From Deltaproteobacteria bacterium (GTDB lineage Bacteria > Bdellovibrionota_B > Oligoflexia > Oligoflexales > RGVZ01), in NCBI GenBank assembly GCA_040381655.1, contig JBEIGW010000002.1:1-35810 (forward strand): a stretch of 35,810 bases of DNA, in the 5' to 3' direction. This document shows, in pieces, positions 8,241 to 28,410 of this stretch. Within the stretch, counting starts at the first letter, position 1. The number at the start of each line of letters is the position of its first letter. The notes under the pieces were generated by a model, which did no database searches, was not told the DNA's origin, and saw nothing but the letters and a program-made list of their open reading frames with translations. A program made the position numbers and the translations under genes.

Positions 8241-8270
8241 TGAGCCACCTACAGGCTCAATATCTGAGCT
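8241..8270. promoter_or_regulatory. operator-like palindrome, site 1 (AGGCTCA-ATATC-TGAGCT) plus an extra upstream TGAGCC half-site
   Basis: Core at 8254-8270, with an additional TGAGCC at 8241-8246. It lies in the divergent intergenic region between 7788-8183(-) and 8312-8971(+). AATAAT/TAATCT -10-like sequence lies 11-13 nt downstream in the + direction. Confidence 0.65.
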
Positions 8271-8311
8271 AGCCATAGCGAAATAATCTCCTTTTGACGA
8301 CAGGGGGCGCG

Positions 8312-8971
8312 ATGAGGCTGATTTTCTGCGTGCGAGATCACACGTTCGATGAAATCTGCATGGGACACCAGCTGGGATTTCCTGCAATCCGTGGGGTAGA
8401 TGCTATTTCCGCAACAGCTAATGCTCGGGGATTTACCCCACTAACAGCGATTGCAAGGACCTTCAGTTGGCAGCGTGATGTCCTAGAGGCCGCCGCTGCT
8501 GAATGCAATCAGCGCCGTGAAGTTGCAGTCCTCAATACCTTGACCCCCAATTTACTGCTTGTCCCAAAGACGCGAGGGGATGGTGGCTGGCTACCGGATG
8601 TGGATCACCTGCTAACAGATCTGATTGCAGCAGTTAATCATCTACAGGTCAGGTCTTTGCATTTCACTCACTTCGGATTTGTGCAGGGCCGGCCGCCCGA
8701 GATGGAGATGCGAAGAATTTTGGAACTATGGCTGAGTCCGTTACAAGAATCCACGCTCGACGTGCTTTATTGGGATGTCGATCGGCGGGGCCTAAATACA
8801 CTGACCAACCTATATGCGGTGGTGGCTCGTCAGTATCGTTTCAAGTGCACTCAGCCAGAAATTTATGTCGCGCCAAGTTTTACATGGCAAGAAATTGATT
8901 CAACGCCGCGAGGTAATTCAGTGCACATATTTACTGAGGGCAGAGACGATCATTTCCCTAGATTTCATTAA
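8312..8971 (+). CDS. hypothetical protein (GC-richer than neighbours)
   Basis: The track ORF starts at TTG 8294. I prefer ATG 8312 because AGGGGG (8302-8307) sits 4 nt upstream of it. No motif recognised. It lies 42 nt upstream of dnaB on the same strand. Confidence 0.65.
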   Translation: MRLIFCVRDHTFDEICMGHQLGFPAIRGVDAISATANARGFTPLTAIARTFSWQRDVLEAAAAECNQRREVAVLNTLTPNLLLVPKTRGDGGWLPDVDHLLTDLIAAVNHLQVRSLHFTHFGFVQGRPPEMEMRRILELWLSPLQESTLDVLYWDVDRRGLNTLTNLYAVVARQYRFKCTQPEIYVAPSFTWQEIDSTPRGNSVHIFTEGRDDHFPRFH

Positions 8972-9013
8972 ATCTATGTGCAATCAAAACAATAAATAAT
9001 AAAGAAGATAAAT

Positions 9014-10393
9014 ATGTCTGCAAGCCGTGATCCTGAATTTGAGTCATTAAAACTTCCACCGCACTCCCTTGAAGCTGAACAGTCTGTATTGGGTGGCTTG
9101 TTGTTAGACAACGCAGCATGGGACAGGATTGTCGATATCTTGAAAGAGTCCGATATCTATCGAGAAGATCATCGACTGATCTTTCGGCACATCGGTCAAT
9201 TAGTGTCTGCAGGTAAACCAGCGGATGTCATTACGGTATTTGAGTCGCTCCAGTCTGTCCATAAAGCCGCGGATATTGGTGGAGTTGGCTATTTGAATTC
9301 GCTTGCCCAGAATGTACCTTCCGCTGCCAATATTAGGCGCTATGCCGAATTGGTGCGCGATCGAGGGATTCTAAGAAAGCTGATCGGCATCGCTGACGAA
9401 ATTTCCAGCTCCGCATTCAATACCAAGGGTAAGCCAATAAACGAATTGTTGGACGAAGCTGAGGCAAAGATATTTTCCATTGCCGAAGAGGGGTCACGAG
9501 GCACAAAGGGGTTTGCAGACATCCAATCCTTAATGACTGGGGTCGTTGAGCGTATCGATGAGCTCTACAGCAGGGAGGGTGACAACGAGGTCACGGGGGT
9601 TCCTACTGGTTTCGCAGACTTGGACAAAATGACTTCTGGTTTGCAGGAGGGCGATCTGATCATTGTTGCCGGCCGCCCATCCATGGGAAAGACCGCTTTC
9701 TCAATCAATATTGGCGAGCATGTTGCGATGGATACGGGTTTGCCTGTGTTGGTATTCTCCATGGAAATGGGGGGATCGCAATTAGCCATGCGTATGCTGG
9801 GCTCAGTGGGGCGGTTGGATCAAAATCGACTTCGGACCGGACGTCTCAATGATGAGGATTGGCCACGTCTTACCCATGCCATTCAAAAACTCAACGAAAC
9901 ACAAATCTACATCGATGAGACACCGGCATTGACTCCAGTAGAGTTAAGGGCAAGAGCCCGAAGGCAGGCACGTCAATGTGGCAAGTTAGGATTGATTATT
10001 GTCGACTACTTACAGTTGATGTCATCGAACTCGCATGGCGAAAATAGAGCGACCGAGATCTCCGAGATCTCTAGAAATCTTAAAGGATTGGCGAAAGAGC
10101 TCAATTGCCCTGTGATTGCGTTATCGCAGTTGAATCGCTCTCTTGAACAACGACCAAACAAGCGTCCCATCATGTCGGACCTGCGTGAATCGGGTGCTAT
10201 TGAGCAAGATGCGGACTTGATTCTCTTTATCTATCGCGATGAGGTCTACAACCCGGACTCAGCAGATATAGGAACAGCAGAAATCATTGTTGGTAAGCAG
10301 AGGAATGGACCAATTGGGCATTGTCGTTTGACGTTTATTGGGCAATTTACAAAGTTCGAGAATTTCGTCAGCGGTGGGCCTACTTACAATTAA
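9014..10393 (+). CDS. dnaB: replicative DNA helicase DnaB
   Basis: 459 aa. N-terminal PPHSLEAEQSVLGGLLLDN, Walker A GRPSMGKTAF, Walker B LIIVDYLQLM, SQLNRSLEQR, and IVGKQRNGP. Normal length, so no intein. Confidence 0.95.
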   Translation: MSASRDPEFESLKLPPHSLEAEQSVLGGLLLDNAAWDRIVDILKESDIYREDHRLIFRHIGQLVSAGKPADVITVFESLQSVHKAADIGGVGYLNSLAQNVPSAANIRRYAELVRDRGILRKLIGIADEISSSAFNTKGKPINELLDEAEAKIFSIAEEGSRGTKGFADIQSLMTGVVERIDELYSREGDNEVTGVPTGFADLDKMTSGLQEGDLIIVAGRPSMGKTAFSINIGEHVAMDTGLPVLVFSMEMGGSQLAMRMLGSVGRLDQNRLRTGRLNDEDWPRLTHAIQKLNETQIYIDETPALTPVELRARARRQARQCGKLGLIIVDYLQLMSSNSHGENRATEISEISRNLKGLAKELNCPVIALSQLNRSLEQRPNKRPIMSDLRESGAIEQDADLILFIYRDEVYNPDSADIGTAEIIVGKQRNGPIGHCRLTFIGQFTKFENFVSGGPTYN

Positions 10394-10616: not shown

Positions 10617-11282
10617 TTAGTTTGCGTATTTTAAAAATGCACTACGTACGAATGGGTCGGTATTGGGCTGGTCCAGTAACCATCTTGCGTAATCTCTAGG
10701 CACCTCAGCGATTGGTGTGCCTTTGTGTTTCCCAAAGGGCATGTGCGTCGGTGTGCGCGCATCTTCCGATTTTTGCCAAAGTACTTCGATCGAATCGATG
10801 TCCCGTTCTTTGCAGATATGCTCGAGTATCGTTGCGCAAATTCGAACGTCTGCGCCTGCAGAGTGAGCATTCCGTAGACGCTGTTTAGCGTTCTTCCTAT
10901 CCAAAAAATAAAGTATGGCGCTTTGGCTATGGGATTGGAGTTCTGGCCAAACGGCCCTAGCCAAATTGAGTGTGCAAACCCGCCGCACATTGGGTGATCC
11001 AATAACAGCCCAGTCAAAATCGACATTGTGTCCGATTAGGTATTGAACGCCTTCAGGCAAATTAAATGAAGCCGAGGGCGGACAATCAGTCAGCTCTTCG
11101 TCAAGGATATGGTGAATAGCCAAGGCCGCCAAGCCGATTGATTTACTGGGCTTGTATCGGTGTTCAAAACACTCGCCAAAGATAAGAGGCGAAAGGGAGC
11201 GAAGTTCCAACCAGGCGGCTTCGATGATTTCTGGGGCATCAAGCCCCGTAGTTTCGGTATCAAATATGATTGCTTTAGACAT
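10617..11282 (-). CDS. DEDDh 3'-5' exonuclease, ExoX-like, with C-terminal FGKHKG...YxxWL tail
   Basis: 221 aa. Exo I IIFDTETTGL, Exo II LIGHNVDFDW, Exo III HSAGADVRI. The C-terminal MPFGKHKGTPIAEVPRDYARWLL resembles the small C-terminal domain of ExoX-type proteins. Confidence 0.85.
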   Translation of the reverse strand: MSKAIIFDTETTGLDAPEIIEAAWLELRSLSPLIFGECFEHRYKPSKSIGLAALAIHHILDEELTDCPPSASFNLPEGVQYLIGHNVDFDWAVIGSPNVRRVCTLNLARAVWPELQSHSQSAILYFLDRKNAKQRLRNAHSAGADVRICATILEHICKERDIDSIEVLWQKSEDARTPTHMPFGKHKGTPIAEVPRDYARWLLDQPNTDPFVRSAFLKYAN

Positions 11283-11290
11283 GGACTAAA

Positions 11291-11800
11291 TTATTCTGAT
11301 CTGGGAAAAATCCGCTCGTTTAATTTGTGCTCTTCATAGAAGCCTTTGAGCGTATCAACAAATTTTCGGATGCAAAAAATAAGGTTGGGCATGTTTAGGC
11401 CAAAGGGGTAGTAAATGACATGATTACCAATCAGTCCGACATCACCGTCATCCCACCGATGGGCAACGTATCGCACCATGAATCCTCGGTAGTTCGCGTT
11501 AGCTGAGATTCTCTGTATTTCTTCATCAGTGAGTTCGCTATTCAATGTCAAATGACCTCTGATCATCATCGATGCATAGTCTGGATAAAGGATGATGCGA
11601 AGGTTGATCCAAGTTCCCAAGACATACAGATCGCCGTCTTCCTCGAGTTTTGTTTCGTACCCAGCCTCCTCAAACCTGGCCTTCAATAGTTCACTGGTGA
11701 CGTTTTCACGTGCGATTTCACGGGCCATCTCAAGCTCCAATGGGATGTGCTTTTGCAGTGGCTGGGTTGGCAATTGCAGCAATTTGAATTTGTCGGTCAT
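11291..11800 (-). CDS. hypothetical protein, tentatively YbjN / T3SS-chaperone-like
   Basis: 169-aa ORF, 8 nt upstream of the exonuclease gene and 15 nt downstream of the Gly-rich gene. The family assignment is only an impression from EEAGYE...DGDLYV...I.LYPD. Confidence 0.6.
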   Translation of the reverse strand: MTDKFKLLQLPTQPLQKHIPLELEMAREIARENVTSELLKARFEEAGYETKLEEDGDLYVLGTWINLRIILYPDYASMMIRGHLTLNSELTDEEIQRISANANYRGFMVRYVAHRWDDGDVGLIGNHVIYYPFGLNMPNLIFCIRKFVDTLKGFYEEHKLNERIFPRSE

Positions 11801-11815
11801 GGCTTCCTATCATTG

Positions 11816-12148
11816 TTATCGGCGCGGCCAACGCTCTGAAGGCGGAAAAGGACGCATCGTTCGGGGATCAAGCCCCCGCGAGCGATCTCTGTCGATCGCA
11901 AGACCGCCGTCTGGGCCGATGGATAATCCACCGCCTGGACCGATCGATTGACCGCCACCTGGGCCAATCGACTGGCCGCCGCCTGGACCGATCGACTGTC
12001 CTCCTCCCGGGCCAATAGATTGACCGCCGCCCGGACCTATCGAATCACAACCGCCGGGGCCGATGGAGCCTGGGATGCAGTCGCGCCAAGCTTGGGCATG
12101 TGCCGATCCTAGGGTGAGTAAAGCAAGCGTGATCAAGATAGTTTTCAT
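11816..12148 (-). CDS. small secreted Gly-rich tandem-repeat protein (SIGPGGGQ x7) with basic C-terminal tail
   Basis: The track ORF runs to 12205. The start is reassigned to ATG 12148, giving MKTILITLALLTLGSAHA|QA, a Sec-type signal peptide with an AHA cleavage motif. Seven 8-aa repeats follow, then RDRSRGLDPRTMRPFPPSERWPRR. Confidence 0.7.
   Translation of the reverse strand: MKTILITLALLTLGSAHAQAWRDCIPGSIGPGGCDSIGPGGGQSIGPGGGQSIGPGGGQSIGPGGGQSIGPGGGLSIGPDGGLAIDRDRSRGLDPRTMRPFPPSERWPRR
11900..12067 (-). repeat. seven tandem 24-bp coding repeats (SIGPGG[GC][QDL])
   Basis: The units are read directly from the sequence. They differ mainly at synonymous third positions (Ser TCC/TCG/TCT, Ile ATC/ATA/ATT, Pro CCC/CCG/CCA). 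Confidence 0.9.
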
Positions 12149-12220
12149 GGTTAGGTAGCGTGCGTTTTTAAAATTGCAATATTGAGCGTGCAGTAAACAA
12201 ATCACAGTTTGACCTCTGCG

Positions 12221-12238
12221 AGGCTCATTTACTGAGCC
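12221..12238. promoter_or_regulatory. operator-like palindrome, site 2 (AGGCTCA-TTTAC-TGAGCC)
   Basis: Perfect 6+6 inverted repeat between the Gly-rich/ExoX operon (-) and the WYL-1 operon (+). GATAAT (12249-12254) lies exactly 10 nt downstream, and the WYL-1 ATG is at 12308 after an AGGGGGA SD. Confidence 0.75.
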
Positions 12239-12307
12239 AGGTAACCTAGATAATCAAATCTAACTATTTGATAACAATGACGGGTTTGGTTATTTCAGGG
12301 GGAATTC

Positions 12308-13279
12308 ATGGGCCGTACCGAGCGCCTGTATAAAATTCAGCGCTTGCTCAATAGCGGGCAGGCAGTCGCTATGGCTCGTTTCCTTGAGGCGCTAGAGATC
12401 TCCAAAGCGACATTCAAGCGCGATCTGGAATACCTGAGAGATCGGTTAGGTGCTCCCATCGTTTGGGATTCAGAGGCAAGCGGCTACCGGCTAGAGATTT
12501 CTGCTAACGAGCGCATCCATCCGCTACCAGGCCTTTGGCTCAATGAGCCTGAGATTTATGCGCTTCTAACGGGTATTGAATTGCTGGGAAATTTGGAGCC
12601 TGCACCGCTAATAGGGCGGCAGATCAGACCACTTAGAGAGCGACTTGAAAAAATCCTGGAGCTCGGTCAATTCTCGACAGAGGACATCCGACGCCGTATT
12701 CGCCTCGTGCCCATGGGAGCGCGTCAGCCTAGTAGCGAGCATTTTCAGGCGATTGCTCATGCGCTTCTGTCTCGCAAGCGCTTGAAACTTCGCCACTTCG
12801 GTAGGCTTGATGCTACGGTCACTGAGAGGGAAGTGTCGCCGCAGAGGCTAGTTTATTACCGCGATAATTGGTACCTGGATGCGTTTTGCCATCTGAGGGA
12901 CGATATACGATCGTTTTCAGTCGATGCGATTGAAGAGGCGACTCCAATTGATAAAAATGCCGTATCTGTGGACGATGTCGTACTCGCGACCGAGTTAGAT
13001 GCTGGCTATGGAATATTTTCCGGCGGGACGACAAAAGTCGCCAAACTTAAATTCTCGCCATTCAAGGCGAGGTGGGTGGCCCGTGAATACTGGCATAAAA
13101 ATCAAAAAGGTGAGATTTTGGACGATGGTAGCTACTTGCTCGACGTGCCATATTTCGATGATCGAGAGCTCATCAACGATATATTGCGGCATGGGAGTCA
13201 AGTTGAAGTGCTCGGCCCAGAAGAATTAAAAACTCGTTTGAAACAGGAAGCGCAGCTGATTTTGGCAAAGCTTCAGTGA
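12308..13279 (+). CDS. WYL-domain transcriptional regulator (wHTH-WYL-C-terminal extension), paralog 1
   Basis: 323 aa. N-terminal HTH RTERLYKIQRLL...ISKATFKRDLEYLRDRLGAPI, WYL signature SPQRLVYYRDNWYLDAFCHLRDDIRSFSVDAI, and a C-terminal extension YGIFSG...LKFSP..ARWVA...DDRELINDILRHGSQVEVLGPEEL. Confidence 0.9.
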   Translation: MGRTERLYKIQRLLNSGQAVAMARFLEALEISKATFKRDLEYLRDRLGAPIVWDSEASGYRLEISANERIHPLPGLWLNEPEIYALLTGIELLGNLEPAPLIGRQIRPLRERLEKILELGQFSTEDIRRRIRLVPMGARQPSSEHFQAIAHALLSRKRLKLRHFGRLDATVTEREVSPQRLVYYRDNWYLDAFCHLRDDIRSFSVDAIEEATPIDKNAVSVDDVVLATELDAGYGIFSGGTTKVAKLKFSPFKARWVAREYWHKNQKGEILDDGSYLLDVPYFDDRELINDILRHGSQVEVLGPEELKTRLKQEAQLILAKLQ

Positions 13280-13312
13280 TATTGAAATATCGCCAAATAA
13301 AAAGAAAAAATT

Positions 13313-13753
13313 ATGCTGCTTAGAATAATTGCCTACATCGCCAGCATCACTACAACCTGGCATCTGGTCGAATACGTATTCACACGGAATCAGATGGCTG
13401 GAATCTATCCGCCCGAGGCCGATAGTATCTCTATTCCGATCATCACAAACCAAGCACTGCTATTGGCGCTCGTAGTTTTGATTCTTCCTACTGCACTGTT
13501 AGGGAGTGCTTGGGTGATGAAAAAATTAAGCAGCTCCAGAACGCTTCTACAAATATTATTTTTGATACCTTGCGCCGGACTTTATGGGATCTCGATACTG
13601 ATTTGCATAAGTATGGCTCTTTCGTCTGCAGACGGAGCGCATTTCGAAATAGGAATGAGCTACGCTGTGATGTTAGCGTTGATCTCTGCAGCCCTTATTT
13701 TTGATGTAATCCGTCTTTATCGTCGTTTGTATAAAAAACAGATTCCTCAATAG
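13313..13753 (+). CDS. small integral membrane protein (about 4 TM helices)
   Basis: 146-aa ORF with four hydrophobic stretches: IIAYIASITTTWHLV, ALLLALVVLILPTALLGSAWV, LLQILFLIPCAGLYGISILICISMAL, and YAVMLALISAALIFDVI. It lies 33 nt after the WYL gene and 16 nt before the nuclease-helicase gene. Confidence 0.65.
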   Translation: MLLRIIAYIASITTTWHLVEYVFTRNQMAGIYPPEADSISIPIITNQALLLALVVLILPTALLGSAWVMKKLSSSRTLLQILFLIPCAGLYGISILICISMALSSADGAHFEIGMSYAVMLALISAALIFDVIRLYRRLYKKQIPQ

Positions 13754-13769
13754 GAAATCAGATAAAAAA

Positions 13770-16700: not shown

Positions 16701-17258
16701 TTCATCGTATGTGGTAAGGAAGCGGATCCCGCTTTGCGGTCATGTGGGATAGTTTTTGAATCTGTACACCACAATGGGTGCTCACAAGACAGTGATGAGG
16801 AGGCAGCCAGGGTGAAAGAAATCTACGATAGCTTGCTGCAGCAAAGCTATGTCGATGACAAAGGAGTTCATCGCCAGATCATGCCTGAAAACATTCTAGT
16901 GGTCTCTCCTTACAATATGCAGGTGAATCTGCTGAAGCAATATCTCGGCAGTGAAGCCAGAGTAGGAACGGTTGATAAGTTTCAGGGGCAGGAGGCAGAA
17001 GCAGTCATCATTTCTATGGCTACGTCGAGCGGCGAGGATTTACCGCGCAATATTGATTTCTTATTTAGCAAAAATCGATTAAACGTGGCCATATCCCGAG
17101 CTAAATGCTTAGTTATTCTGGTAGCTTCTCCCATGCTTCAAGCTGTGAATTGCCGAACCCCAGAACAAATTCGCTTAGTGAATACCATTTGCTGGGTTAG
17201 CCAGTATTCTAAATTGCGTCCACACTCTACAGAAAAACAAAATTATTTTTTGGATTAG
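13770..17258 (+). CDS. RecB/Cas4-like PD-(D/E)xK nuclease + RNase-H-like domain + Upf1/Dna2-like SF1B helicase fusion (TM0106-type)
   Basis: 1162 aa. N-terminal FMECEH...GYADFL...EIIDTKLS...QLAFYADLL plus the Cys cluster CDKCDLCHWRDRC (Cas4/AddB-type Fe-S arrangement). Middle block FFDMEGFP...YHYAAYEKTAL...YNEEDVIST. Helicase motifs IQGPPGAGKTYT, YLFVDEAGQ, LLGDQMQLSQP, VDKFQGQEAEAVIISM, and LNVAISRAKCLVILV. Confidence 0.9.
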   Translation: MQKINGQVIFSASDLVHFMECEHLSILDRLHLDKPMEKAKDSEEAELIQNRGFAHEKAYLEKAKSTAKSYIDIAKAGESRDARVAATVVAMKEGVDLIYQAAFYQAPMIGYADFLKRVDKPSNLGRHSYEIIDTKLSKKSRAKFIIQLAFYADLLEGVQGIAPDCVSVVLGDGFEEKFQLSDYRYYYQSLKQRFLQFLAKSQEQGVAEFAASSNPFPCDKCDLCHWRDRCNNWWDETDHLTQVANILKTHIHKLNAVGISTVEQLANVPPSARILKIPDPVLQRLRHQAQLQHKAKTTGERFVELITVNPEQTAEPGPRGFGRLPRPSPHDLFFDMEGFPHVEDGLEYLFGLYYIDGSNGGVFKPFWGHDRAGEKRAFETWVDFVIGHLDQHPEARIYHYAAYEKTALRKLMRLHGTRETEIDRLLRENKLVDLYQVVREAIRISERSYSIKYVEKFYLAGRSSEVKSAGSSIVAYQKWRDSNPKEQVILDEIEKYNEEDVISTFELLRWLHKQKPTGLLWYGEHLDDASLELNGGRSEKALTFEKRLATLYAQLSHHIPEDISVRNALQIHASVVRDLLDFHRRTTKPQWWAVFDRQAKSFEERVEEVDCVAGAWPLENCPPVPEKQSLRYTYQYPAQEIKLKTGDNVVLVDSLMGLSDFTVDPEQRVVTFKLGKKREFTPGAIDIGAGTPIDQGVLQNALFRYAESLIQALNARAVNPYAAIDALIRREFPAVSGIESGAPLLTANANVSDIASVIRRLDHSVIFIQGPPGAGKTYTASHVILDLLKAGKRIGVSSNSHKAIVNLLEAVEKEAKDCGFTFSGVKKSDPLDESQCVNGEYIKDIKDKEGIIAADAQLVAGTAWLFADQEFDQQFDYLFVDEAGQVALGMLIPMATSTKNIVLLGDQMQLSQPVEGVHPGSSGDSVLDYLLQGESTIASNRGIFLEKTWRMHPEVCDFISEAIYDGRLDSHPKTKNRFIVCGKEADPALRSCGIVFESVHHNGCSQDSDEEAARVKEIYDSLLQQSYVDDKGVHRQIMPENILVVSPYNMQVNLLKQYLGSEARVGTVDKFQGQEAEAVIISMATSSGEDLPRNIDFLFSKNRLNVAISRAKCLVILVASPMLQAVNCRTPEQIRLVNTICWVSQYSKLRPHSTEKQNYFLD

Positions 17259-17260
17259 AT

Positions 17261-17671: not shown

Positions 17672-17703
17672 ATTTTATCGTATATATTTTTACATAAGTT
17701 CAT

Positions 17704-18702: not shown

Positions 18703-18711
18703 GTCATTACC

Positions 18712-20616: not shown

Positions 20617-20693
20617 TGGTCACTACATCCATGGAAGAAGCGACCTAGATTATTTATATATTCGTACATCTTTTGAACGATTTTGGATTGCTG

Positions 20694-20722
20694 AGGCATG
20701 GGCGTTCTGCTTGCCCATGCCT
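20694..20722 (-). terminator. 10-bp GC-rich hairpin between the vWA and transglutaminase-like genes (attenuator/terminator candidate, no U-tract)
   Basis: AGGCATGGGC-gttctgctt-GCCCATGCCT, 44 nt downstream of the vWA stop on the minus strand. No T-run follows on either strand. Confidence 0.35.
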
Positions 20723-20765
20723 ACAGACGATGATCGTTGAATCACTTCAAGCTTTTTTGGCGAAT

Positions 20766-23075
20766 TTAGAGGTTTTGCCTAATGATCAATTCATTAAAGT
20801 CTAGTGTCTTAGGATCATCTTCCAGTGTGCCCCAGCGATCTTCATGAACCTCTGGCAAACAGGCGCTGAGACGATCATGGATTTCGTCTTTTATGTCGTC
20901 CTGTAAGACGGAAAGAGTATGGTCTAACAGTCGCTTGACCTGCCGAGGGGCGACCTTTGTGTGGTCCAAGGCGCCGATGAGCCAGTCGAGGAATACAGCC
21001 CATGCGAGAACGCGATCATTGAGCTCGGTAGAAATTACACCGATCAGCTCTTCAATCTCCGATGGCAAGCCACAATTCAAAAAGCGGGTGATGGCATCTT
21101 CAAAGTCAGTGTAAGTTAGTGCCACATCCTCCAAGATAGACAATAAGGCCATTGGCTCAATGCCGAACATCTCAGGATCAGCTTGCCGCCGCATATAGCT
21201 GGGAGTCTCGGAGCTTGAAAGGAATTGAGCCATTTTGGACGATCGTAGTGGGGCAGAATATGCCATCGAATACAACACCCTGCTAGCTGATATCTGCACT
21301 GGCCGGACCGATCCCAATCCATGCCAACCGGCGGCCACCATTTGCTGTATTTGGTGCGGTTCTGGTAAACCTAGTGCTTTGTCATCCGAGACACGTTGAA
21401 CTACCATGAAGAGGTTGGTGTGCTCGGTAACGAGCTGATACTTTATTGCTATCTGACTTGCAGCTTCGGTGTCGGCAGCATCACGCAACAGTTTGGCACC
21501 TACGATTCGTGTGAGTGTGGATGTTGTCGGGGCTAAATCTAATCCGGCCTGAGGGGCTGCTGCGCCGTCAGTAGTTGACGACAAGATGAGGTTGATTGCA
21601 GCAGCAGTAACTACCGGCACTTCGCTGGGCTTGTCTTCAAGAATTGCAGCTAGATGGATCATCTCTCCTGGGTAGACGACTTTCGGGACTGGGGAGTGCC
21701 AGACAACTGACGTATGCCAATTTACAGATAGTCCGGCCACGATGCCTTGGCGCATTCGGTTAACCATGCGCTGCATAGCCGCGGCCATGTCCTCATTCGG
21801 TGACACAAACGCGCAAGCGCCATCACTATGTTCAGTAATCTCGCGCAGCAGACTTTCAGCTGGGGAGCTACCTACGCCAATCGCAAAGATTCTATGATTG
21901 GATTCCCTAGCAGACTGAATGATATTCTCAATATCCCAGACCTCGCCGTCCGTAATTAACAGTACATTGACCGGCCGCTCTCTGCGCTCACTCGTGATGT
22001 TGAATGTGTCCGTTAGTGCAGCATGCATCTCCGTGCCACCGAGATCGGCGGAGGTTTTATCAATGGCAGGCTCCAGAGATTTTGCCTTGAACTCAGTCGT
22101 TGCTGATGTGAGTTTCCCAACCACGCGACGGGGCTGGCTGCCAAACAGGCTGTAAGAGACTTTGTCTGCAGAGCTCAATAATGGCATGAGCGTCCTCAAG
22201 CCATTGCGTGCAAGCTCAATACTGTCACCTTCCATCGATCCCGAGCAGTCAACCAAGATCTTCAACTCAATTTCGGAAGAAAGTGTATTGGCCTCTTCAT
22301 TGAATACAGGAGTAAAACTTAATAGTGCTGGATACTCATCACCGTCCTTTGCCAGGGAAAAAACACCTTGGCTTTGAACGTCATCAATGACGATGACCAG
22401 ATCGCGATCGAGATAGCCTTCTCGACTCATGCTGACTACGGACTGATCATTGTCGTTGTGAATACTGGTTTGATGACTCGGGCAACTGATCGTACCTTTT
22501 GCAAGGTCTCCACCAATAGTAAGAGTCAATGACAATGGATAAGAAGCTGCGAGACTGGCATCCACAGAAGCAGGTTTTTTTAATTTGCCTGTTTTGAAGG
22601 GATCGCCATAACGAGGCGCGACAGTTGTTGGGATAGACAGACGCACCTGGCCTTGTTCGATTCTCAGCAATTGCGCGTATTCGATTTCAATCATGGCCTC
22701 TTCATCAGGCTTTAAGTTGCCCATGTGAGCCGTATATAGACCTTCGCCTGATTTCTCGACCATGATCGGCGTGTCGCCTTCTTTAATAGCCTTCTCGTAA
22801 TTTTCTTCGGCTTCAGTTTTCGGTAGAACAGTACCTTGCCAGGTTTTTCCTGCCATCGTAGCGGTCAGGCCCAGTAACGTACATTCCCAAGCCAACGGAA
22901 AGGTATAAATCGTCTCGATATTCTTCTTTGTCGTGTTCTTATAAAACTGACGTGCCTTAACTGTGAAAAGTAGGCCATCAACGCTTGCTACGATGTCGAC
23001 CTTTTGCAGCAGTACAGGCTGACCTTTCGTTCCTTCAAGTATGGATTTTTGAATTGTTTCGGTGGATGCAGACAT
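20766..23075 (-). CDS. VIT + von Willebrand factor A domain protein with unknown ~300-aa C-terminal region
   Basis: 769 aa with a GAGGT SD. The N-terminal VIT-like region is VDIVASVDGLLFTVKARQFYKN...YTFPL...EKSGEGLYTAHMGNLKPDEEAMIEIEY. The vWA MIDAS motif is LVDCSGSMEG, followed by ...LITDGEVW. No signal peptide. Confidence 0.85.
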   Translation of the reverse strand: MSASTETIQKSILEGTKGQPVLLQKVDIVASVDGLLFTVKARQFYKNTTKKNIETIYTFPLAWECTLLGLTATMAGKTWQGTVLPKTEAEENYEKAIKEGDTPIMVEKSGEGLYTAHMGNLKPDEEAMIEIEYAQLLRIEQGQVRLSIPTTVAPRYGDPFKTGKLKKPASVDASLAASYPLSLTLTIGGDLAKGTISCPSHQTSIHNDNDQSVVSMSREGYLDRDLVIVIDDVQSQGVFSLAKDGDEYPALLSFTPVFNEEANTLSSEIELKILVDCSGSMEGDSIELARNGLRTLMPLLSSADKVSYSLFGSQPRRVVGKLTSATTEFKAKSLEPAIDKTSADLGGTEMHAALTDTFNITSERRERPVNVLLITDGEVWDIENIIQSARESNHRIFAIGVGSSPAESLLREITEHSDGACAFVSPNEDMAAAMQRMVNRMRQGIVAGLSVNWHTSVVWHSPVPKVVYPGEMIHLAAILEDKPSEVPVVTAAAINLILSSTTDGAAAPQAGLDLAPTTSTLTRIVGAKLLRDAADTEAASQIAIKYQLVTEHTNLFMVVQRVSDDKALGLPEPHQIQQMVAAGWHGLGSVRPVQISASRVLYSMAYSAPLRSSKMAQFLSSSETPSYMRRQADPEMFGIEPMALLSILEDVALTYTDFEDAITRFLNCGLPSEIEELIGVISTELNDRVLAWAVFLDWLIGALDHTKVAPRQVKRLLDHTLSVLQDDIKDEIHDRLSACLPEVHEDRWGTLEDDPKTLDFNELIIRQNL

Positions 23076-23187
23076 TTTTACCTCACGAGTAAGTGGGATA
23101 CATCAATCAGATTAGTAACTGGATCAAGCACTGCCTTAAAGTAGGTAGAGCGTGTGTTGCAAGGTGTGATTCGCGGCCTACATAAAA

Positions 23188-23577
23188 TTATTGATTGAAC
23201 ATTGCCGGTTCGCGACCGACGACGTGTGAGCCTGGATCATCAATGTGGGCAACGGAGGAGGGTCCATTGGGGATGAGCCAAGCACAGGGAAGAGTGAGTC
23301 CGCCGAACATGGATTCGTACACACAAAAATCCACCCAGCACAATTCCCCGCCTACCTGCGCGCGGCCCGTTAAGCCTAGTCGTGTCCATTGATCTACCAG
23401 AGCTGCGATACCAGAAGGGCTCATAGCGCCGTCACGCAGCAAATACTGGTCATGCCACACTCGTCCCCCAATCAAATGGGCATGGTCTTTCAAACAACGC
23501 TCCCAACCGCCGGGATATTTGGCGCGTATTGCGCTGATGTTGACGATGAAGTCGATGAATTCGGTCTGAATCGCCAT
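23188..23577 (-). CDS. hypothetical protein (GC-richer), downstream of palindrome site 3
   Basis: 129-aa ORF with a GAGG SD 6 nt upstream of the ATG. No motif recognised. Confidence 0.65.
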   Translation of the reverse strand: MAIQTEFIDFIVNISAIRAKYPGGWERCLKDHAHLIGGRVWHDQYLLRDGAMSPSGIAALVDQWTRLGLTGRAQVGGELCWVDFCVYESMFGGLTLPCAWLIPNGPSSVAHIDDPGSHVVGREPAMFNQ

Positions 23578-23654
23578 GGCTAGCCTCGGTCAGTTATAGA
23601 TTTGTAAATAAACACGCATCATCGTGCGCGTTAAGAATCGTTATACCGACCATC

Positions 23655-23672
23655 AGGCTCAAAGACTGAGCT
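23655..23672. promoter_or_regulatory. operator-like palindrome, site 3 (AGGCTCA-AAGAC-TGAGCT)
   Basis: An 11/12 match. On the minus strand, TATAAC (23645-23640) lies 10 nt from the core and points at the 129-aa ORF. Confidence 0.7.
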
Positions 23673-23698
23673 AGCAAATTTTCACAAAAATATATTTC

Positions 23699-23716
23699 TG
23701 GCTCAACTAATGAGCC
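23699..23716. promoter_or_regulatory. operator-like palindrome, site 4 (TGGCTCA-ACTAA-TGAGCC)
   Basis: Perfect 6+6 match. TATACT (23727-23732) lies 10 nt downstream and points at the SprT-like gene (ATG 23779). The centre of this site is 44 bp from the centre of site 3. Confidence 0.75.
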
Positions 23717-23778
23717 TGGCGATTTTTATACTGATCTTAGAAACAAAGTTTAAATATCTATCAATTTCGAGGTCTTGA

Positions 23779-24366
23779 ATGGCGATAAAACCCACAACCC
23801 GGGAGTCTTGGCTGGAAGCTGCGGTTCAGGAATTAATACCGATTTTTGCCAAAGCTGGCTTCGCGGTCCCTTTGTGTAGGGTGTCCTGTGGATTTGCGAG
23901 CACTGGGACAAGGAGCGGCCATATTGGCCAGTGCTGGAGTACGAAAGCGAGCAAAGACGGAATAAACCAGATCTTTGTGTCCCCTGCATTGGAGGACGCC
24001 ATTGAGGTGCTCGATACTTTGGTCCACGAACTAGTTCATGCCGTGGACGATTGCCAGCATAAGCATGGCAAAGAGTTTAAAAAAATAGCAATTAAATTAG
24101 GAATGACTGGGCCAATGCGCAGCGCAGGCGCCGGACCAATATTGAAAGAGAAACTAAAGGAGGTGGCGGGCAGGCTTGGGGCTTATCCGCATGCCAGGCT
24201 ATCCGTACCCATGAAGGCCGTGACCAGATCGCCGCGGCCACGAGCAAAGTGCCAAAAATGTGGATTCACAGTCCCAATGCTAAAAGACTTTTTGCATTAT
24301 GGGCCGCCAATATGCCCGAAAGACCGGGTAGAGATGGATGCGATCGGCGATTGGGAAATAGCTTAG
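23779..24366 (+). CDS. SprT-like zinc metallopeptidase domain protein
   Basis: 195 aa with a GAGG SD. The HExxH motif sits in LDTLVHELVHAVDD, followed by HGKEFKKIA. The N-terminal GFAS...GQCW...IFVSP pattern and a C-terminal CQKCG...ICP zinc-ribbon remnant are typical of SprT-family proteins. Confidence 0.75.
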   Translation: MAIKPTTRESWLEAAVQELIPIFAKAGFAVPLCRVSCGFASTGTRSGHIGQCWSTKASKDGINQIFVSPALEDAIEVLDTLVHELVHAVDDCQHKHGKEFKKIAIKLGMTGPMRSAGAGPILKEKLKEVAGRLGAYPHARLSVPMKAVTRSPRPRAKCQKCGFTVPMLKDFLHYGPPICPKDRVEMDAIGDWEIA

Positions 24367-25340
24367 CGTTCGTATTGCCGGGAGGCGGCTTCATGCTCCC
24401 GGTGTACCTTGTCACGCAGGGCTTTGGGAGAAAGGACCTTAACTGCAGCACCATGTTTGGCGATATCAAGCAGGAGTTCGCGGTCGTCAGAATAGGGGAA
24501 TTCAAGAATATAAGCGCCAGACTCATCAAATGAGCCCCTTTGGTCAGGATGCCAAAGCTCAGCAGCTACCCAGCGGGCGCGCTCAGGGGTAAATTTCAGT
24601 TTTGCAGTATGTTTGGATTTACCTGCAAAGATGCCGTAGCTGACAGCAAGATATTGGTCGAGAGATTTGATGGATACATCGATAGCTTTTTTATTGACAG
24701 GGTTGATAGCGCGTATGCCATCCAGAGAAAACCCGCGGAGTCCGTCTCTTAGATGACACCAGGCATCCAAGTACCAGTTGTCTCGATAGTGAATTAAACG
24801 CTGAGGAGAGATTTCGCGGAGGGTGATTTCGTTACTTGCTCGAGCATAGTATTGGATTTCGATGCGTTGTCGCTTGAAAAGGGCAACCCCAACTTCGGAG
24901 AAGAAATGACTGCCTTGAACGCGACGGCCCATATCAACCAGCTTAATTCGCTTGCGAATTTCTTTGGACGAGGATTCGCCTTCGCCAATGACTGCATCGA
25001 GACGCGATAGAAAGGGTTGAATATGTGGCCCGATGATACTGCCTTGATCGAGGTTCTCGAGCAGCTGCTGCATGGTGATTAGCGCAAAGATCTCTTGCTC
25101 GGAGAACCAAAGACCGGGAAGTGAAAACTTGTTCTTGCTGTTATTGGTGCTCTCGTAGCGATATCCCCGAAGGTCGGTGTCGTAGACCACCGGAGCGTTA
25201 AAGCGATCGCGCATATATTCAAGGTCGCGCTTGAATGTGGCAAGCGACACTTCAAGAATCGAAAGAAAAGAGTCACGACTGACGATTTTTCGATCTTGAA
25301 GAACTTGATCGATTTTATAGAAGCGTTCGAGGCGGTTCAT
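24363..25340 (-). CDS. WYL-domain transcriptional regulator, paralog 2
   Basis: The track ORF runs to 25379. I prefer ATG 25340 (MNRLERFYKI...) because GAGGA sits 7 nt upstream and the resulting length (326 aa) matches paralog 1. Motifs are VSLATFKRDLEYMRDRFNAPV and SPQRLIHYRDNWYLDAWCHLRDGLRGFSLDGI. Its stop overlaps the SprT-like stop (TTAG at 24363-24366). Confidence 0.9.
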   Translation of the reverse strand: MNRLERFYKIDQVLQDRKIVSRDSFLSILEVSLATFKRDLEYMRDRFNAPVVYDTDLRGYRYESTNNSKNKFSLPGLWFSEQEIFALITMQQLLENLDQGSIIGPHIQPFLSRLDAVIGEGESSSKEIRKRIKLVDMGRRVQGSHFFSEVGVALFKRQRIEIQYYARASNEITLREISPQRLIHYRDNWYLDAWCHLRDGLRGFSLDGIRAINPVNKKAIDVSIKSLDQYLAVSYGIFAGKSKHTAKLKFTPERARWVAAELWHPDQRGSFDESGAYILEFPYSDDRELLLDIAKHGAAVKVLSPKALRDKVHREHEAASRQYER

Positions 25341-25404
25341 TAAATTTTCCTCATATTTTAACCACCGGCCTAGGATCACTCCAGAGTTAACGAGCTTAAA
25401 GACC

Positions 25405-25442
25405 CTTCATCAAAAAATGTGGCCACTATTTTTTAAATGAAG
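25405..25442. other. AT-rich imperfect palindrome between the ATPase gene and WYL paralog 2
   Basis: CTTCAT-CAAAAAATGTGGCCACTATTTTTTAA-ATGAAG, centred on GTGGCCAC. It could be a weak terminator or a protein-binding site. Confidence 0.3.
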
Positions 25443-25561
25443 AAACAAATAAAAAAATAAACTGTTTTTCAATTTAACCGATGTAACGAATACAACTTGC
25501 TACACAACTAGTTTACCTCTGACTAAGGTTTCAAAAAACGTGCAAAAAAGAGGCTCAATAA

Positions 25562-26884
25562 CTACCGGAGAGGTGATGAAAGCGACCGTATGATGGGCTG
25601 CTGCATCTCAGTTCTTGGCCAGTCCGCAGCAGGAGTTGTACCCCCCAATGCAACTGCCATACGAGCTCGTGATGCATCAACCTCAAAACCTCTTGGTGTA
25701 GTCACCTCTGTCTGTGATGAAGTTAACTTTGCATCCCCCATAGCGACAATGCCACCGACAATTTTTCTTAAGAACTGAAGATTTGCGCCTCCGCCTGCGA
25801 AAACTACGTCAAGATGAGAAATGCCGTGGTTTGAAGCGTGAAGTTGTGCTTTAAAGCGGGAGCCCGCGTCCTCAAGCATTTCCCTGATTGCCGTTTTTAA
25901 ACCACTTGCCATTTTTTGGAGTTTGTCTGTGCGGACGAGTTCTTCTCGCGAAATTTGTACCTGCCGGAAAACCAGATTGCCAGTCTCGAATAGCGTTTCT
26001 TTAGAGCGGCGAATATCATTTTTCAGTGCTGCAAGGTCAATACCGCTATTTGGACCGAGCCTTTCTGCAACTAATTTTATTAGAGCGTGGTCGATTTCAT
26101 CTCCTGCACCGAACAAGCTACGTGCAGGTGTCATCGGAATAAGCTTTCGGGTTACCTTCGAATATTCATCTGGTAAAACAGAGACAAATAGACCGAGGTC
26201 GATGGTGCCCGCCCCGACATCCACGACTAAAGTTGCGCTACGATTGTTTGGGGAAGGATCTTGAAGCAACTCAAGCGCCGCAGCAACAGGTTCTTCAACC
26301 TCAACATCGAAGGATGGTTTTTTTGATGCTTGACTTGCTTTTTTATACCAGAGGTTAAATTGATCAGTACTCATCTCTTGCATTATCGTAGACCCAGTAG
26401 CGCTGAATGCGATACGTCCGAGTTGATCGTAAACAACGGCTATTTTTTGTCGATCTGAGGTACTCCAGACGGGATGACTTATGCGATACGAGAGAGTGCT
26501 AGTTTTTAACTTGAAAATATTTTTACCTGCAGCTATGGAGTCTTGTACTGCCAGCGCTAGTAAACCAGCGATTAGTTGAAATCGGGGAAATGGTGCGCTA
26601 CTTACTTCCGACTGATATATCTTAGAGATGTTTGAGGGACTGAGCCAGGATTTTGGGCTTGATTCAAAAAGCAATCGTGGCTGGGCAGAAAGACCTGCCT
26701 CAAGTGCTTTGTCACCAAAGAAAATCTTATCGCCAGCAATTGGAATAAAGATAGCGCTAGGGATAGATGCATTATCAATTTGACTTCTAGGTGCAATTGC
26801 AAGCGGATGCGATACCGAATCCTTTTGTTTTCGTATTGCGGCTCTAATAGAACTGGTCCCGAAATCAATGCAAAGAGTGTCCAC
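25562..26884 (-). CDS. Hsp70-family (DnaK/YegD-like) nucleotide-binding-domain-only ATPase
   Basis: 440 aa. GTG start with an AAGGTG SD 5 nt upstream, 11 nt after the stop of the preceding gene. Motifs: CIDFGTSSIR (phosphate-1), VEEPVAAALE (the Hsp70 EPTAAAL motif), VVDVGAGTIDLG (phosphate-2), FGAGDEIDHALI (GGxDFD-like), and VVFAGGGANLQFL (adenosine). No substrate-binding domain. Confidence 0.85.
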   Translation of the reverse strand: MDTLCIDFGTSSIRAAIRKQKDSVSHPLAIAPRSQIDNASIPSAIFIPIAGDKIFFGDKALEAGLSAQPRLLFESSPKSWLSPSNISKIYQSEVSSAPFPRFQLIAGLLALAVQDSIAAGKNIFKLKTSTLSYRISHPVWSTSDRQKIAVVYDQLGRIAFSATGSTIMQEMSTDQFNLWYKKASQASKKPSFDVEVEEPVAAALELLQDPSPNNRSATLVVDVGAGTIDLGLFVSVLPDEYSKVTRKLIPMTPARSLFGAGDEIDHALIKLVAERLGPNSGIDLAALKNDIRRSKETLFETGNLVFRQVQISREELVRTDKLQKMASGLKTAIREMLEDAGSRFKAQLHASNHGISHLDVVFAGGGANLQFLRKIVGGIVAMGDAKLTSSQTEVTTPRGFEVDASRARMAVALGGTTPAADWPRTEMQQPIIRSLSSPLR

Positions 26885-26895
26885 AAAATCACCTT

Positions 26896-28245
26896 TCAGT
26901 TCACTGGGAAGACCAATGCACGAGTCAGAACTCTTTGGGAATTATCGCTTCTCAACAGTCGAACGCCAGGTATTTCAATGCGAACGTTAGTTGGTGGTTG
27001 CGCGCTGCTATCTCCAAGAAAATGTTGAAGCGGCTGATACTGAACTAAATCTCCCTTTGAACCATACATTTCTATTTTTGCTTTGCTCGCAACTAGATTA
27101 ACTAAAGCACTCACTTCTTTTGCGACAGACGGATCGGGAAGATCGGAGCAGTACCGATACCAAGAAATCAAAAGGGCCGCTATTTGTTCCTGAATTCCGG
27201 AATGAGCGGATAGTTCATCGCTGTCTTCAATCGCAGGATCTTTAGTCGGTAAAAGGATGGCTTTAACTAGTTCTCTATCTGATAGAAATTTTGCCGAAAT
27301 TTTTTCTATTGGTAAGCAATGGGAGGCAAATGCTAATAGCTCTCTGACCTCGACAGTATTATTCATGCCATGCATTTTTACGTGCTGTAGCACAGTGCTT
27401 ACTATTCGCGAGCTTAGAGGGTTAAGATTTTTTTGTAGTGGTTTCGGTAAACCGCCTGGCTGCCTCGAAAAGATTGTCAGGCCTTGAAGCGTTTTTTCAC
27501 TAAGCAGTATTGTCGGCTCGCGAGCGCTTATCGTTTCCAAAATTCCGAGCGTAGATTTTTGAATTTCAATAATAGCTTTCGAAGAATAGTGAGTTCTTTG
27601 ACTAAGGTCGACTACCGACGAAGCCAAATTAGAAAACTCCTCCCCGAAATAACCACCTGATTCGATTTCGCGCGATGGTAACAACTTAGCTACTAATTTA
27701 AGTACTTGATTAACGCGATCAAGATCGGTTGTGTGATCCGCCCGAATTATGCTCGACAGTTCCTTGACTAAATCAGCATACGTAGTGCTGGACCCGATAG
27801 CCAATTTTACGAGTTCGTTGGCAAGTACTTTGCTTGTTTGTGTATTTATTGCTTCTTTTAGGGCATAAGAAATCTTCCAGCTTGCTTTTAATGGTCCCAA
27901 AAATTTGATAGCGCCAATCCGCTCGTCATCGTTAGCTAAGGTGTTCAAGGCGGGTGGAGCAGTATCAATCCACCGTAGCGGTCGGATTTTTTGCTTGGCA
28001 GCAGACTTGCTACCTTTAGCGATCGCCAATCCAATAAGCCCGAGGCACTGATACGCAAGTACTTCATCGGTTTCTTTTTGAAGTTTTATTGCAAGCAGAT
28101 TCACCTTCCGATCGATTTCGTCACCGAACTTCTGGTCAATCTTTTTTTTGTTCAGTGGTAGCAGCGATCGCAATGTAGCAATGATTTCGACTGTATCTGC
28201 TTCGTTGCTTGCGGGTGAATTCGAAGATGGGGTAGATGTAGTCAT
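26896..28245 (-). CDS. hypothetical 449-aa protein, predicted all-helical, partner of the Hsp70-like ATPase
   Basis: Long uninterrupted ORF, translationally coupled to the ATPase gene. Ser/Thr-rich N-terminus, then Leu/Ala/Lys-rich segments. No catalytic motif recognised. Confidence 0.75.
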   Translation of the reverse strand: MTTSTPSSNSPASNEADTVEIIATLRSLLPLNKKKIDQKFGDEIDRKVNLLAIKLQKETDEVLAYQCLGLIGLAIAKGSKSAAKQKIRPLRWIDTAPPALNTLANDDERIGAIKFLGPLKASWKISYALKEAINTQTSKVLANELVKLAIGSSTTYADLVKELSSIIRADHTTDLDRVNQVLKLVAKLLPSREIESGGYFGEEFSNLASSVVDLSQRTHYSSKAIIEIQKSTLGILETISAREPTILLSEKTLQGLTIFSRQPGGLPKPLQKNLNPLSSRIVSTVLQHVKMHGMNNTVEVRELLAFASHCLPIEKISAKFLSDRELVKAILLPTKDPAIEDSDELSAHSGIQEQIAALLISWYRYCSDLPDPSVAKEVSALVNLVASKAKIEMYGSKGDLVQYQPLQHFLGDSSAQPPTNVRIEIPGVRLLRSDNSQRVLTRALVFPVN

Positions 28246-28392
28246 TTTATTATCGTTTTGTGTGCCGTAACCGCATCATTATCAATATAAATCTCAGTCT
28301 CAGCGAACTGCGATGTTTTCAAAAAAATAAAAATCATTAATCAACGTAAAAATCTGACGTTGCTGAGAACTAGAACAATTCTTGCTCACAGC

Positions 28393-28410
28393 AGGCTCAT
28401 CAAGTGAGCC
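28393..28410. promoter_or_regulatory. operator-like palindrome, site 5 (AGGCTCA-TCAAG-TGAGCC)
   Basis: Perfect 6+6 match in the 488-bp divergent region between the 449-aa/ATPase operon (-) and the PLD-SNF2/MTase operon (+). AAGAAT (28383-28378, minus strand) lies 10 nt from the core. The weaker CATCAT (28421-28426) lies 10 nt away on the plus side. Confidence 0.75.

Follow-up and report, generated by a model that had tools for sequence, protein, structure and literature searches.

Introduction

The closest described counterparts of the system considered in this work are two transcriptional activators of the WYL family. DriD, from Caulobacter crescentus, activates an SOS-independent response to DNA damage; its three-helix bundle touches RNA polymerase after single-stranded DNA (ssDNA) has been bound, and its operator, with the consensus ATACGAC-N7-GTCGTAT, is read by Arg37 and Arg41 (PMC9186387, PMC10853764, PMC13004042). 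DdaA, described in Acinetobacter and other Moraxellaceae in papers of 2025-2026, binds CGWCA-N5-TGWCG and controls DNA-damage genes together with anti-phage systems, while outside the core Moraxellaceae its targets are a few genes near its own locus, including recA, recC, sbcC and an N6-methylase gene (PMC12392091, PMC13010146). Here we describe a gapped palindrome, GGCTCA-N5-TGAGCC, found in the intergenic DNA of a stretch of 35,810 nucleotides (nt) deposited as Deltaproteobacteria bacterium (assembly GCA_040381655.1, contig JBEIGW010000002.1, positions 1 to 35,810; the whole stretch is called the window hereafter), which encodes two WYL paralogues, WYL-1 and WYL-2. The palindrome is very probably the operator of the WYL clade to which these two proteins belong. 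We also consider it fairly likely, from the promoter geometry and the comparison of sequences and predicted folds, that this clade is of the DriD/DdaA kind and that WYL-1, WYL-2 or both activate, as DriD does, promoters that lack a -35 element. An earlier note on this DNA, made from its letters alone, had pointed to the palindrome and had not recognised it as a described operator. In fact, no description of the operator or of the clade was found in the searchable literature, so that the operator sequence appears to be new, whereas the principle has already been published for DriD and DdaA (the latter in 2025).

The window proteins and DriD have the same domain order, namely wHTH (winged helix-turn-helix), three-helix bundle, WYL and WCX. 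The palindromes are of equal overall length, and the CGAC-N7-GTCG part of the DriD operator can be rewritten as 5+5 bases with a 5-bp spacer; in both systems the operator lies over an empty -35 slot, at a single fixed distance from the -10. Many relatives of WYL-1 and WYL-2 also resemble DriD in having a site near the start codon of the regulator itself, and replication and repair genes are targets in both cases (dnaG, recJ and recA for DriD, dnaB in the window, recA and recC in relatives). The half-site is different, being GGCTCA in the window and (ata)CGAC in DriD, and the window sites do not follow the DriD consensus. The hosts are Beta- and Gammaproteobacteria for this clade and Alphaproteobacteria for DriD. 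Moreover, unlike DriD, the window has two paralogues, and their putative targets are mostly island cargo and defence candidates.

The resemblance to DdaA concerns both the operator and the regulon. The DdaA palindrome also ends in CA-N5-TG and differs in the outer bases of the half-site (CG instead of GGC). As with DdaA, one regulon unites repair genes (recA, recC and an SbcD-like gene) with cas3, toxin-antitoxin and SNF2/PLD genes in relatives, and the window itself carries candidate defence genes; the small regulon of neighbouring genes seen outside the core group of DdaA hosts matches the picture in our relatives. The DdaA motif as such was rejected as the operator of the window, where it is not enriched: four matches with at most one mismatch were found against 2.9 expected, none of them tied to promoters. 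The palindrome also differs from the LexA/SOS box of the CTGT-N8-ACAG type, in agreement with the earlier note.

Conservation of the Palindrome Beside WYL Genes

A pattern search of the window, compared with shuffled sequence, found five GGCTCA-N5-TGAGCY sites (Table 1), corresponding to eight strand-matches as compared to 0.02 expected. Three are perfect 6+6 palindromes and two, which end in TGAGCT, match at 11 of 12 positions, exactly as the earlier note had reported. Intergenic DNA accounts for 8.1% of the window and holds all five exact sites, an arrangement with a chance probability of about 3e-6. The flanks stretch the symmetry of the core to about cAGGCTCA-N5-TGAGCCtg, and the centres of sites 3 and 4 are 44 bp apart. 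It had also been stated that no half-site within coding sequence has a partner at N5 spacing; this is not quite right, since a sixth copy with one mismatch is present within WYL-2. This copy lacks a -10 at either of the offsets 10 and 11, and no further copies were found in the window when up to two mismatches were allowed.

The earlier note had proposed a search of relatives for the motif with one mismatch allowed. We fetched 160 loci around homologues of WYL-1 and WYL-2 (47-92% identity) belonging to Burkholderiales, Rhodocyclales, Nitrosomonadales, Chromatiales and relatives. After five near-copies of the window had been set aside, conservation was counted over the remaining 1.54 Mb, around 157 WYL homologues of Beta- and Gammaproteobacteria. 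Perfect copies of the palindrome numbered 65 at N5, and each of the other gaps between 0 and 12 yielded none or one. When one mismatch was tolerated, 129 copies were counted at N5 and 1-13 at the other gaps, and the everted arrangement of the half-sites stayed at background level. Upstream of the WYL homologues, GGCTCA with a gap of 5 was by far the commonest perfect gapped palindrome. The motif is concentrated beside WYL homologues in about 100 other genomes, where the copies cluster either within some tens of bases of the codon that starts the WYL gene or shortly past its stop codon. The motif is therefore a phylogenetic footprint tied to the WYL family and restricted to a single spacing, which refutes both chance and a generic dispersed repeat and supports the proposal that it is an operator.

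The same letters might instead be a dispersed repeat or act in the RNA, as a terminator, a REP-like (repetitive extragenic palindromic) element or a leader structure. The palindrome could form a hairpin with a stem of 6 bp and a loop of 5 nt, and several copies in relatives lie just past the WYL stop codon. Departures from the consensus are nevertheless mostly one-sided and uncompensated (18 AGC/GGC pairs vs. 3 AGC/AGC pairs), and this argues against an RNA stem. Conservation in about 130 sites extends to the very sequence of the half-site; the palindrome is not followed by a T-run, its copies are upstream of phased -10 hexamers and genes, and no other spacing occurs. The hairpin or terminator was rejected on the basis of the spacing specificity and of the uncompensated departures, and we regard a repeat or RNA element of any of these kinds as extremely improbable.

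Geometry of the Promoters

We aligned 130 non-redundant sites and scanned both flanks for -10-like hexamers, defined as matching TATAAT at four or more of six positions, A2 and T6 included. Of these flanks, 68 have such a hexamer starting at offset 10 and 34 have one starting at offset 11, as compared to a mean of 3.7 and a maximum of 9 at the other 48 offsets. At least one phased -10 (offset 10 or 11) accompanies 86 of the 130 sites, and 16 of them have one on both sides. The phasing that the earlier note had seen in the window is thus a general property of the motif, and the oriented consensus is tGGCTCA-YNNNR-TGAGCC-N10/11-(C/T)ATA(A/C)T-G. In the window, the distance of exactly 10 nt indicated in that note applies to GATAAT, TATACT, TATAAC, AAGAAT and CATCAT, whereas the good hexamers at site 1, AATAAT and CAAAAT, are 11 nt away. 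Altogether, the five sites give rise to up to eight outward-facing promoters, six of them with reasonable hexamers, which would provide near-complete coverage of the genes between 4137 and 35493.

The -35 slot of these promoters is empty. In all 70 one-sided sites, no more than two of the six TTGACA positions are matched by core positions 5-10, the place that a -35 element separated from the -10 by 17 bp would take, and a consensus scan of the four intergenic regions of the window predicted no canonical sigma-70 -35/-10 pair. The 17-bp palindrome spans about -39 to -23, with its centre near -31. In the DriD oligonucleotides, the engineered -35 takes the place of bases 4-9 in a core of 15 bp, and the -10-like hexamer of the driD-divergent and didA promoters starts 11 nt after the core (PMC9186387, PMC10853764, PMC13004042). 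Eleven nt after a 15-bp core are equivalent to 10 nt after a 17-bp core, and the register is therefore the same as that of the window sites.

The position of the palindrome had left two possibilities in the earlier note, occlusion of the promoter by a repressor or activation without a -35. The evidence favours activation, because the distance to the -10 is fixed at 10-11 nt, the -35 slot is empty, the geometry is identical to that of DriD and the closest fold match, presented below, is DriD itself. The same operator and the same WYL binders could nonetheless work as BrxR and CapW do, with a dimer over the -35 that blocks RNA polymerase until a phage or damage signal releases it and the island is de-repressed. 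A defence-type island is the usual context of BrxR and CapW, which are homodimeric wHTH-WYL-WCX regulators found inside such islands beside highly variable cargo, and whose operators are inverted repeats with a 5-bp spacer, like the window sites; CapW, too, binds ssDNA (PDB 9c5g). A repressor, however, does not need a fixed distance of 10-11 nt from the -10 and leaves the missing -35 of the one-sided promoters unexplained. The R-BOX of BrxR, with 11-bp arms and a 5-bp spacer, is downstream of the -10 and blocks the polymerase from there (PMC9122601), whereas the window sites are upstream of the -10 and share the geometry of DriD-activated promoters. In both sequence and fold, DriD and PafBC resemble the window proteins more closely than CapW and BrxR do, and recA and recC are among the targets elsewhere. 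Repression of this kind seems unlikely to us, but it is the main rival of activation.

Several observations weigh against activation or soften the evidence for it. A centre near -31 is also a classic position for a repressor, overlapping the region that the polymerase must contact, and the studied WYL regulators of defence islands, BrxR and CapW, are repressors. In several relatives, sites lying some 24 nt away from the start codon of the WYL gene look autorepressive, as has been proposed for driD. DdaA sites are reported to be about 50 bp or even 160 bp upstream of the targets, a geometry unlike the one found here (PMC12392091, PMC13010146). No phased -10 is present at 44 of the 130 sites, even under a loose criterion (four or more of six positions), and the conservation counts are inflated by orthologous promoters of related metagenome-assembled genomes. 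As for the proteins, about 43% of the homologues with Lys or Arg at the variable position of the recognition helix (see below) have no site within 400 nt, and the profile of the wHTH of the clade does not detect DriD or PafBC by sequence when searched against PDB. Finally, residues 163-164 are His-Phe in the WYL-1 clade and Tyr-Tyr or His-Tyr in WYL-2 and most relatives; in DriD and DdaA, the Tyr found at this position is required for the ssDNA response. Judging from this difference, WYL-1 and WYL-2 may sense differently.

For the activating mode, the earlier note had taken PafBC as the model. PafBC does activate promoters devoid of a -35, its motif keeps a fixed distance from the -10, and it consists of two paralogous WYL chains. 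It differs in being an obligate heterodimer or a fusion that acts on an asymmetric motif, whereas the window site is a symmetric palindrome. The adjacent paralogues typical of PafBC are also absent, since WYL-1 and WYL-2 are 12 kb apart and most relatives have a single WYL gene; within the fetched 6-kb flanks, a second one was present in only 3 of the 160 loci. DriD and DdaA are the closer analogues.

WYL Protein Structure and Covariation With the Operator

Pfam detected the WYL and WCX domains in the WYL proteins, while NCBIfam offered no specific model for WYL-1 or WYL-2. An AlphaFold model of WYL-2, built with 49 homologues (mean predicted local distance difference test, pLDDT, of 77), places the wHTH at residues 3-62, followed by three helices (81-131), the WYL barrel (158-218) and WCX (224-324). 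When the model was submitted to Foldseek, full-length DriD gave the best match (E = 5e-14, template modelling (TM) score 0.55), followed by PafBC, and CapW/BrxR gave E values of about 1e-8 and TM scores of about 0.38. A sequence search of the WYL-WCX part against PDB ranked PafBC first (E = 1e-18), then DriD and then BrxR (E = 4e-3). Residues Y164, R175, Y190, R202 and Y235, which have the spacing of the ssDNA contacts of DriD, show little or no variation in WYL-2 and its relatives (49 homologues). The exact WYL-2 protein, with either of two alternative start codons, had no record in assemblies, and tblastn against plasmids found no Acinetobacter homologue. A search with the driD promoter sequence gave a single match, at the end of a contig that cuts the gene off after 7 codons.

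The palindrome is also linked to the WYL proteins through the recognition helix. WYL-1 and WYL-2 are 47% identical and have in common the helix A-T-F-K-R-D-L-E-Y-(L/M)-R-D-R. Among the homologues this helix splits into classes at one position, A-T-x-[K/R/N/C]-R-D. A site was found within 400 nt of 67 of the 117 homologues with K or R and of none of the 35 with N or C (Fisher p = 3e-11). The N and C classes have TCA-N5-TGA palindromes instead, with GTA, GTC or GTG as outer bases. Operator and helix thus change together, which fits a helix that reads the outer half-site and supports the assignment of the WYL proteins as the binders, as had been suggested from their position in the window. In a group of Alcaligenaceae/Zwartia-like loci (L098-L129), where Asn or Cys replaces Lys37, a GT(A/C)TCA-N5-TGA(G/T)AC palindrome lies about 120 nt upstream and GGCTCA is absent. 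This looks like a specificity switch inside the family.

The covariation also bears on the possibility that another host protein binds the palindrome, or that an alternative sigma factor uses it as a -35-like element, with the vicinity of WYL genes a by-product of the shared island. The observation that fits such a binder is that 39 of 60 exact composite promoters, described in the next section, have no WYL gene in the fetched locus (8 kb or less). Distant targets are however expected of a global regulator, as with DdaA and DriD; a half-site that covaries with a residue of the WYL recognition helix, and a symmetric palindrome sized for dimeric wHTH proteins and unlike sigma-factor elements, also speak against it. 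Either possibility, another binder or a sigma-factor element, is in our estimate very unlikely.

In DriD, Arg37 reads G2, C1 is contacted by Glu40, and Arg41 recognises the G opposite C4 (PMC9186387, PMC10853764, PMC13004042), and DdaA keeps both helix arginines, R47 and R51 (PMC12392091, PMC13010146). In our own alignment of the helices on the conserved Thr, Ala34, Lys37 and Arg38 are invariant in the 49 homologues, so that in this clade the first base-reading Arg of DriD appears to be replaced by Ala34 and Glu40 by Lys37; contacts to G are proposed for Lys37 and Arg38. The bases are consistent with this mapping: relative to CGWCA, GGCTCA retains C4 and has C in place of G2 and G in place of C1. 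Since the wHTH profile does not detect DriD, this residue-by-residue correspondence is one that we infer; the wHTH alone and as a profile matched, in PDB, NiaR/BirA-like HTH_11 proteins and not DriD.

Targets in Other Genomes

Near WYL genes, the first genes downstream of phased sites are the WYL gene itself and genes for Cas3, RecC, an SbcD-like phosphoesterase, DEAD/SNF2 helicases, HigB and PIN toxins, DUF4258, YfbR-like HD proteins and SbmA-like ATP-binding cassette (ABC) transporters. The exact composite GGCTCA-N5-TGAGCC-N10-CATACTG was also searched in one genome per species (185,579 species, 596 Gb), and 61 loci were found as compared to about 4 expected, almost all in Beta- or Gammaproteobacteria. 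Only 21 of 60 composites had a WYL gene in the fetched locus, which indicates that distant targets exist. The genes behind the exact composites were recC (4), vWA (4 paralogues in one metagenome-assembled genome), DUF4258 (4), recA, DUF2130, HD_4, HNH and HIRAN; the vWA, DUF2130 and HD_4 families are also encoded in the window. This regulon looks like a response to DNA damage or foreign DNA with variable cargo, much as described for DdaA.

Some of these loci are worth describing individually. The recC genes with the same operator and -10 are in L171, L173, L197 and L225. The recA gene of L181, a metagenome-assembled member of Nevskiales, has operator and -10 at 5484-5517 and no LexA-like box within 300 nt. 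The four vWA paralogues are on four contigs of one betaproteobacterial genome (L190, L192, L211 and L224), each with a near-identical operator-promoter cassette.

Proposed Mechanism and Its Implications

In the mechanism that we propose, GGCTCA-N5-TGAGCC would be the binding site of the WYL clade with the domains wHTH, three-helix bundle, WYL and WCX that contains WYL-1 and WYL-2, and tGGCTCA-YNNNR-TGAGCC, a spacer of 10-11 nt and the -10 hexamer would form a composite promoter in which the palindrome substitutes for the missing -35. If Caulobacter DriD and Acinetobacter DdaA are taken as a guide, a dimer of the ligand-bound regulator would occupy the palindrome and hold RNA polymerase on an otherwise weak promoter. 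The ligand would probably be ssDNA arising from DNA damage or from attack by phages or plasmids. Binding of the protein to the site, activation by this binding and ssDNA as the ligand are what we infer from these parallels. A single signal could then turn on most of the repair and defence island, namely the HD-domain string, dnaB, the exonuclease, the WYL-1/nuclease-helicase string, the VIT-vWA and transglutaminase genes, the SprT-like protease, PDC-M61A, PDC-M61B, WYL-2 and the pair formed by PLD-SNF2 and the type IIG methyltransferase. WYL-1, directly behind site 2, is probably autoregulated.

If this mechanism is correct, the SOS-independent activator circuit that senses ssDNA, known from DriD and DdaA, would extend well beyond Caulobacter and Moraxellaceae, and PDC-M61, the PLD-SNF2 and type IIG pair, the RecB-like nuclease-helicase and the vWA/transglutaminase genes would be induced together with repair and replication genes. 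The grammar of operator and promoter presented here is testable, and it concerns a very large and unstudied WYL/YafY clade, with at least 7,995 protein clusters at E <= 1e-10, distributed in Beta- and Gammaproteobacteria, many of which are uncultured freshwater bacteria. Cultured carriers include Polynucleobacter sp. AP-Melu-500A-A1, Azohydromonas and Azonexus fungiphilus, and the clade is also present in the complete genomes CP070653.1, CP070671.1, OZ239426.1 and OZ271845.1. The specificity rule, Lys37 with GGC and Asn/Cys with GT, can be used for regulon prediction.

A more speculative scheme, which we consider doubtful, is that operator and -10 form a portable wiring unit by which new cargo (defence candidates, vWA, DUF2130, HD) is plugged into an SOS-independent damage alarm of the host that drives recA and recC in relatives. 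In this scheme the two paralogues, with identical DNA specificity and diverged sensor pockets, might form a heterodimer or act as antagonists and so integrate two signals.

Gene Content of the Island

The coordinates of the sites, hexamers and genes are given in Table 1. Near-identical contigs come from freshwater-lake metagenomes, and the closest named relatives of the window are Polynucleobacter and Oxalobacteraceae genomes assembled from metagenomes. PADLOC gave matches adjoining both WYL genes, namely PDC-M61A/B, HKD+Snf2, the type IIG enzyme and the MkoA-like helicase.

Table 1. Operator sites, -10-like hexamers and genes in the window
Feature	Coordinates	Strand	Remarks
Operator site 1, GGCTCAATATCTGAGCT, 11/12	8254..8270		Between 131-aa gene (-) and 219/225-aa gene and dnaB (+); identical in contigs L081-L085
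Operator site 2, GGCTCATTTACTGAGCC, perfect	12222..12238		
Operator site 3, GGCTCAAAGACTGAGCT, 11/12	23656..23672		Kept in L164
Operator site 4, GGCTCAACTAATGAGCC, perfect	23700..23716		
Operator site 5, GGCTCATCAAGTGAGCC, perfect	28394..28410		
Sixth copy, one mismatch, GACTCATCAAATGAGCC	24520..24536		Inside WYL-2 coding sequence; kept in related contigs L001 and L164
-10-like CAAAAT	8237..8242	-	11 nt past site 1, toward 7788-8183 gene, HD_4 gene (7166-7744), on to 4137
-10-like AATAAT	8282..8287	+	11 nt past site 1, toward 8312-8971 gene and dnaB (9014-10393)
-10-like GATAAT	12249..12254	+	10 nt past site 2, toward WYL-1
-10-like TATAAC	23640..23645	-	10 nt past site 3, toward 129-aa (23188-23577), VIT-vWA (20766-23075) and transglutaminase (18712-20616) genes
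-10-like TATACT	23727..23732	+	10 nt past site 4, toward SprT-like gene (23779-24366)
-10-like AAGAAT	28378..28383	-	10 nt past site 5, toward PDC-M61A (26896-28245), PDC-M61B (25562-26884) and WYL-2
-10-like CATCAT	28421..28426	+	10 nt past site 5, toward split HTH open reading frame, PLD-SNF2 (28734-32129) and type IIG methyltransferase/nuclease (32134-35493)
Six-gene string including HD_4 gene	4137-8183	-	
219-aa gene, then dnaB	8312-10393	+	
RNase T-like exonuclease, 169-aa gene, Gly-rich secreted protein	10617-12148	-	
WYL-1, membrane protein, TM0106 RecB-like nuclease fused to MkoA/DNA2-like helicase, two small genes	12308-18135	+	
WYL-1, wHTH-WYL-WCX regulator	12308..13279	+	First in gene string; recognition helix S-K-A-T-F-K-R-D
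Membrane protein	13313-13753	+	In WYL-1 gene string
RecB-like nuclease / SF1 helicase	13770-17258	+	In WYL-1 gene string
158-aa gene, DUF3857-transglutaminase, VIT-vWA protein, 129-aa gene	18226-23577	-	
SprT-like metalloprotease	23779-24366	+	
WYL-2, PDC-M61B (Hsp70/actin-like), PDC-M61A	24363-28245	-	
WYL-2, WYL-1 paralogue	24363..25340	-	Recognition helix A-T-F-K-R-D-L-E-Y
Frameshifted excisionase-type HTH open reading frame, HKD(PLD)-SNF2 protein, type IIG methyltransferase/nuclease	28501-35493	+	

Both WYL genes had been described in the earlier note as lying directly beside sites. This is the case for WYL-1, which adjoins site 2, whereas the upstream region of WYL-2 (25341-25561) contains no operator; the sites closest to WYL-2 are number 4, past the 3' end of the gene, and number 5, which is 3 kb upstream and heads the M61A-M61B-WYL-2 string. 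In L164 a different gene takes the place of PDC-M61B upstream of WYL-2 (2226-2517 in L164, 25341-25561 in the window), and identity with the window stops exactly at the WYL-2 start codon. We considered whether the PDC-M61 genes had been inserted between WYL-2 and an ancestral operator, and rejected it: the WYL-2 gene of L164 also has no upstream site, and the homology just ends at the start codon. A second swap is seen in the near-identical contig L081, where a Peptidase_S24 gene (20985-21380) is found beside the transglutaminase gene, in the place of VIT-vWA. Since cargo is exchanged at fixed junctions in related contigs, regulators and operators appear as stable anchors beside changing cargo.

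A few other features of the window were noted. A perfect inverted repeat, CAACGT-N9-ACGTTG (28343-28363), is present in the leader between the minus-strand -10 of site 5 and the start of PDC-M61A, and may be a second operator or an RNA hairpin. Directly after the predicted transcript start of the 129-aa/VIT-vWA/transglutaminase genes there is a terminator-like hairpin with a T-run (23614-23631, minus strand), which may act as a leader or an attenuator or have arisen by chance. The excisionase-type HTH gene at 28501-28652, between site 5 and PLD-SNF2, is split by a frameshift near an A-run; it reads MMAKQPFTASTVRDVFGVPAC up to a stop codon and then, in the other frame, ...NEKTIYRLPQKGNLLSFKVSDAWRFRRQT, again up to a stop codon, and could be a pseudogene, an assembly error or a case of programmed slippage. 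The secreted protein encoded at 11816-12205 (minus strand) has five to six tandem GPGGGQSI repeats, and in two loci of Oxalobacteraceae, L087 and L089, a homologue of it adjoins the same operator.

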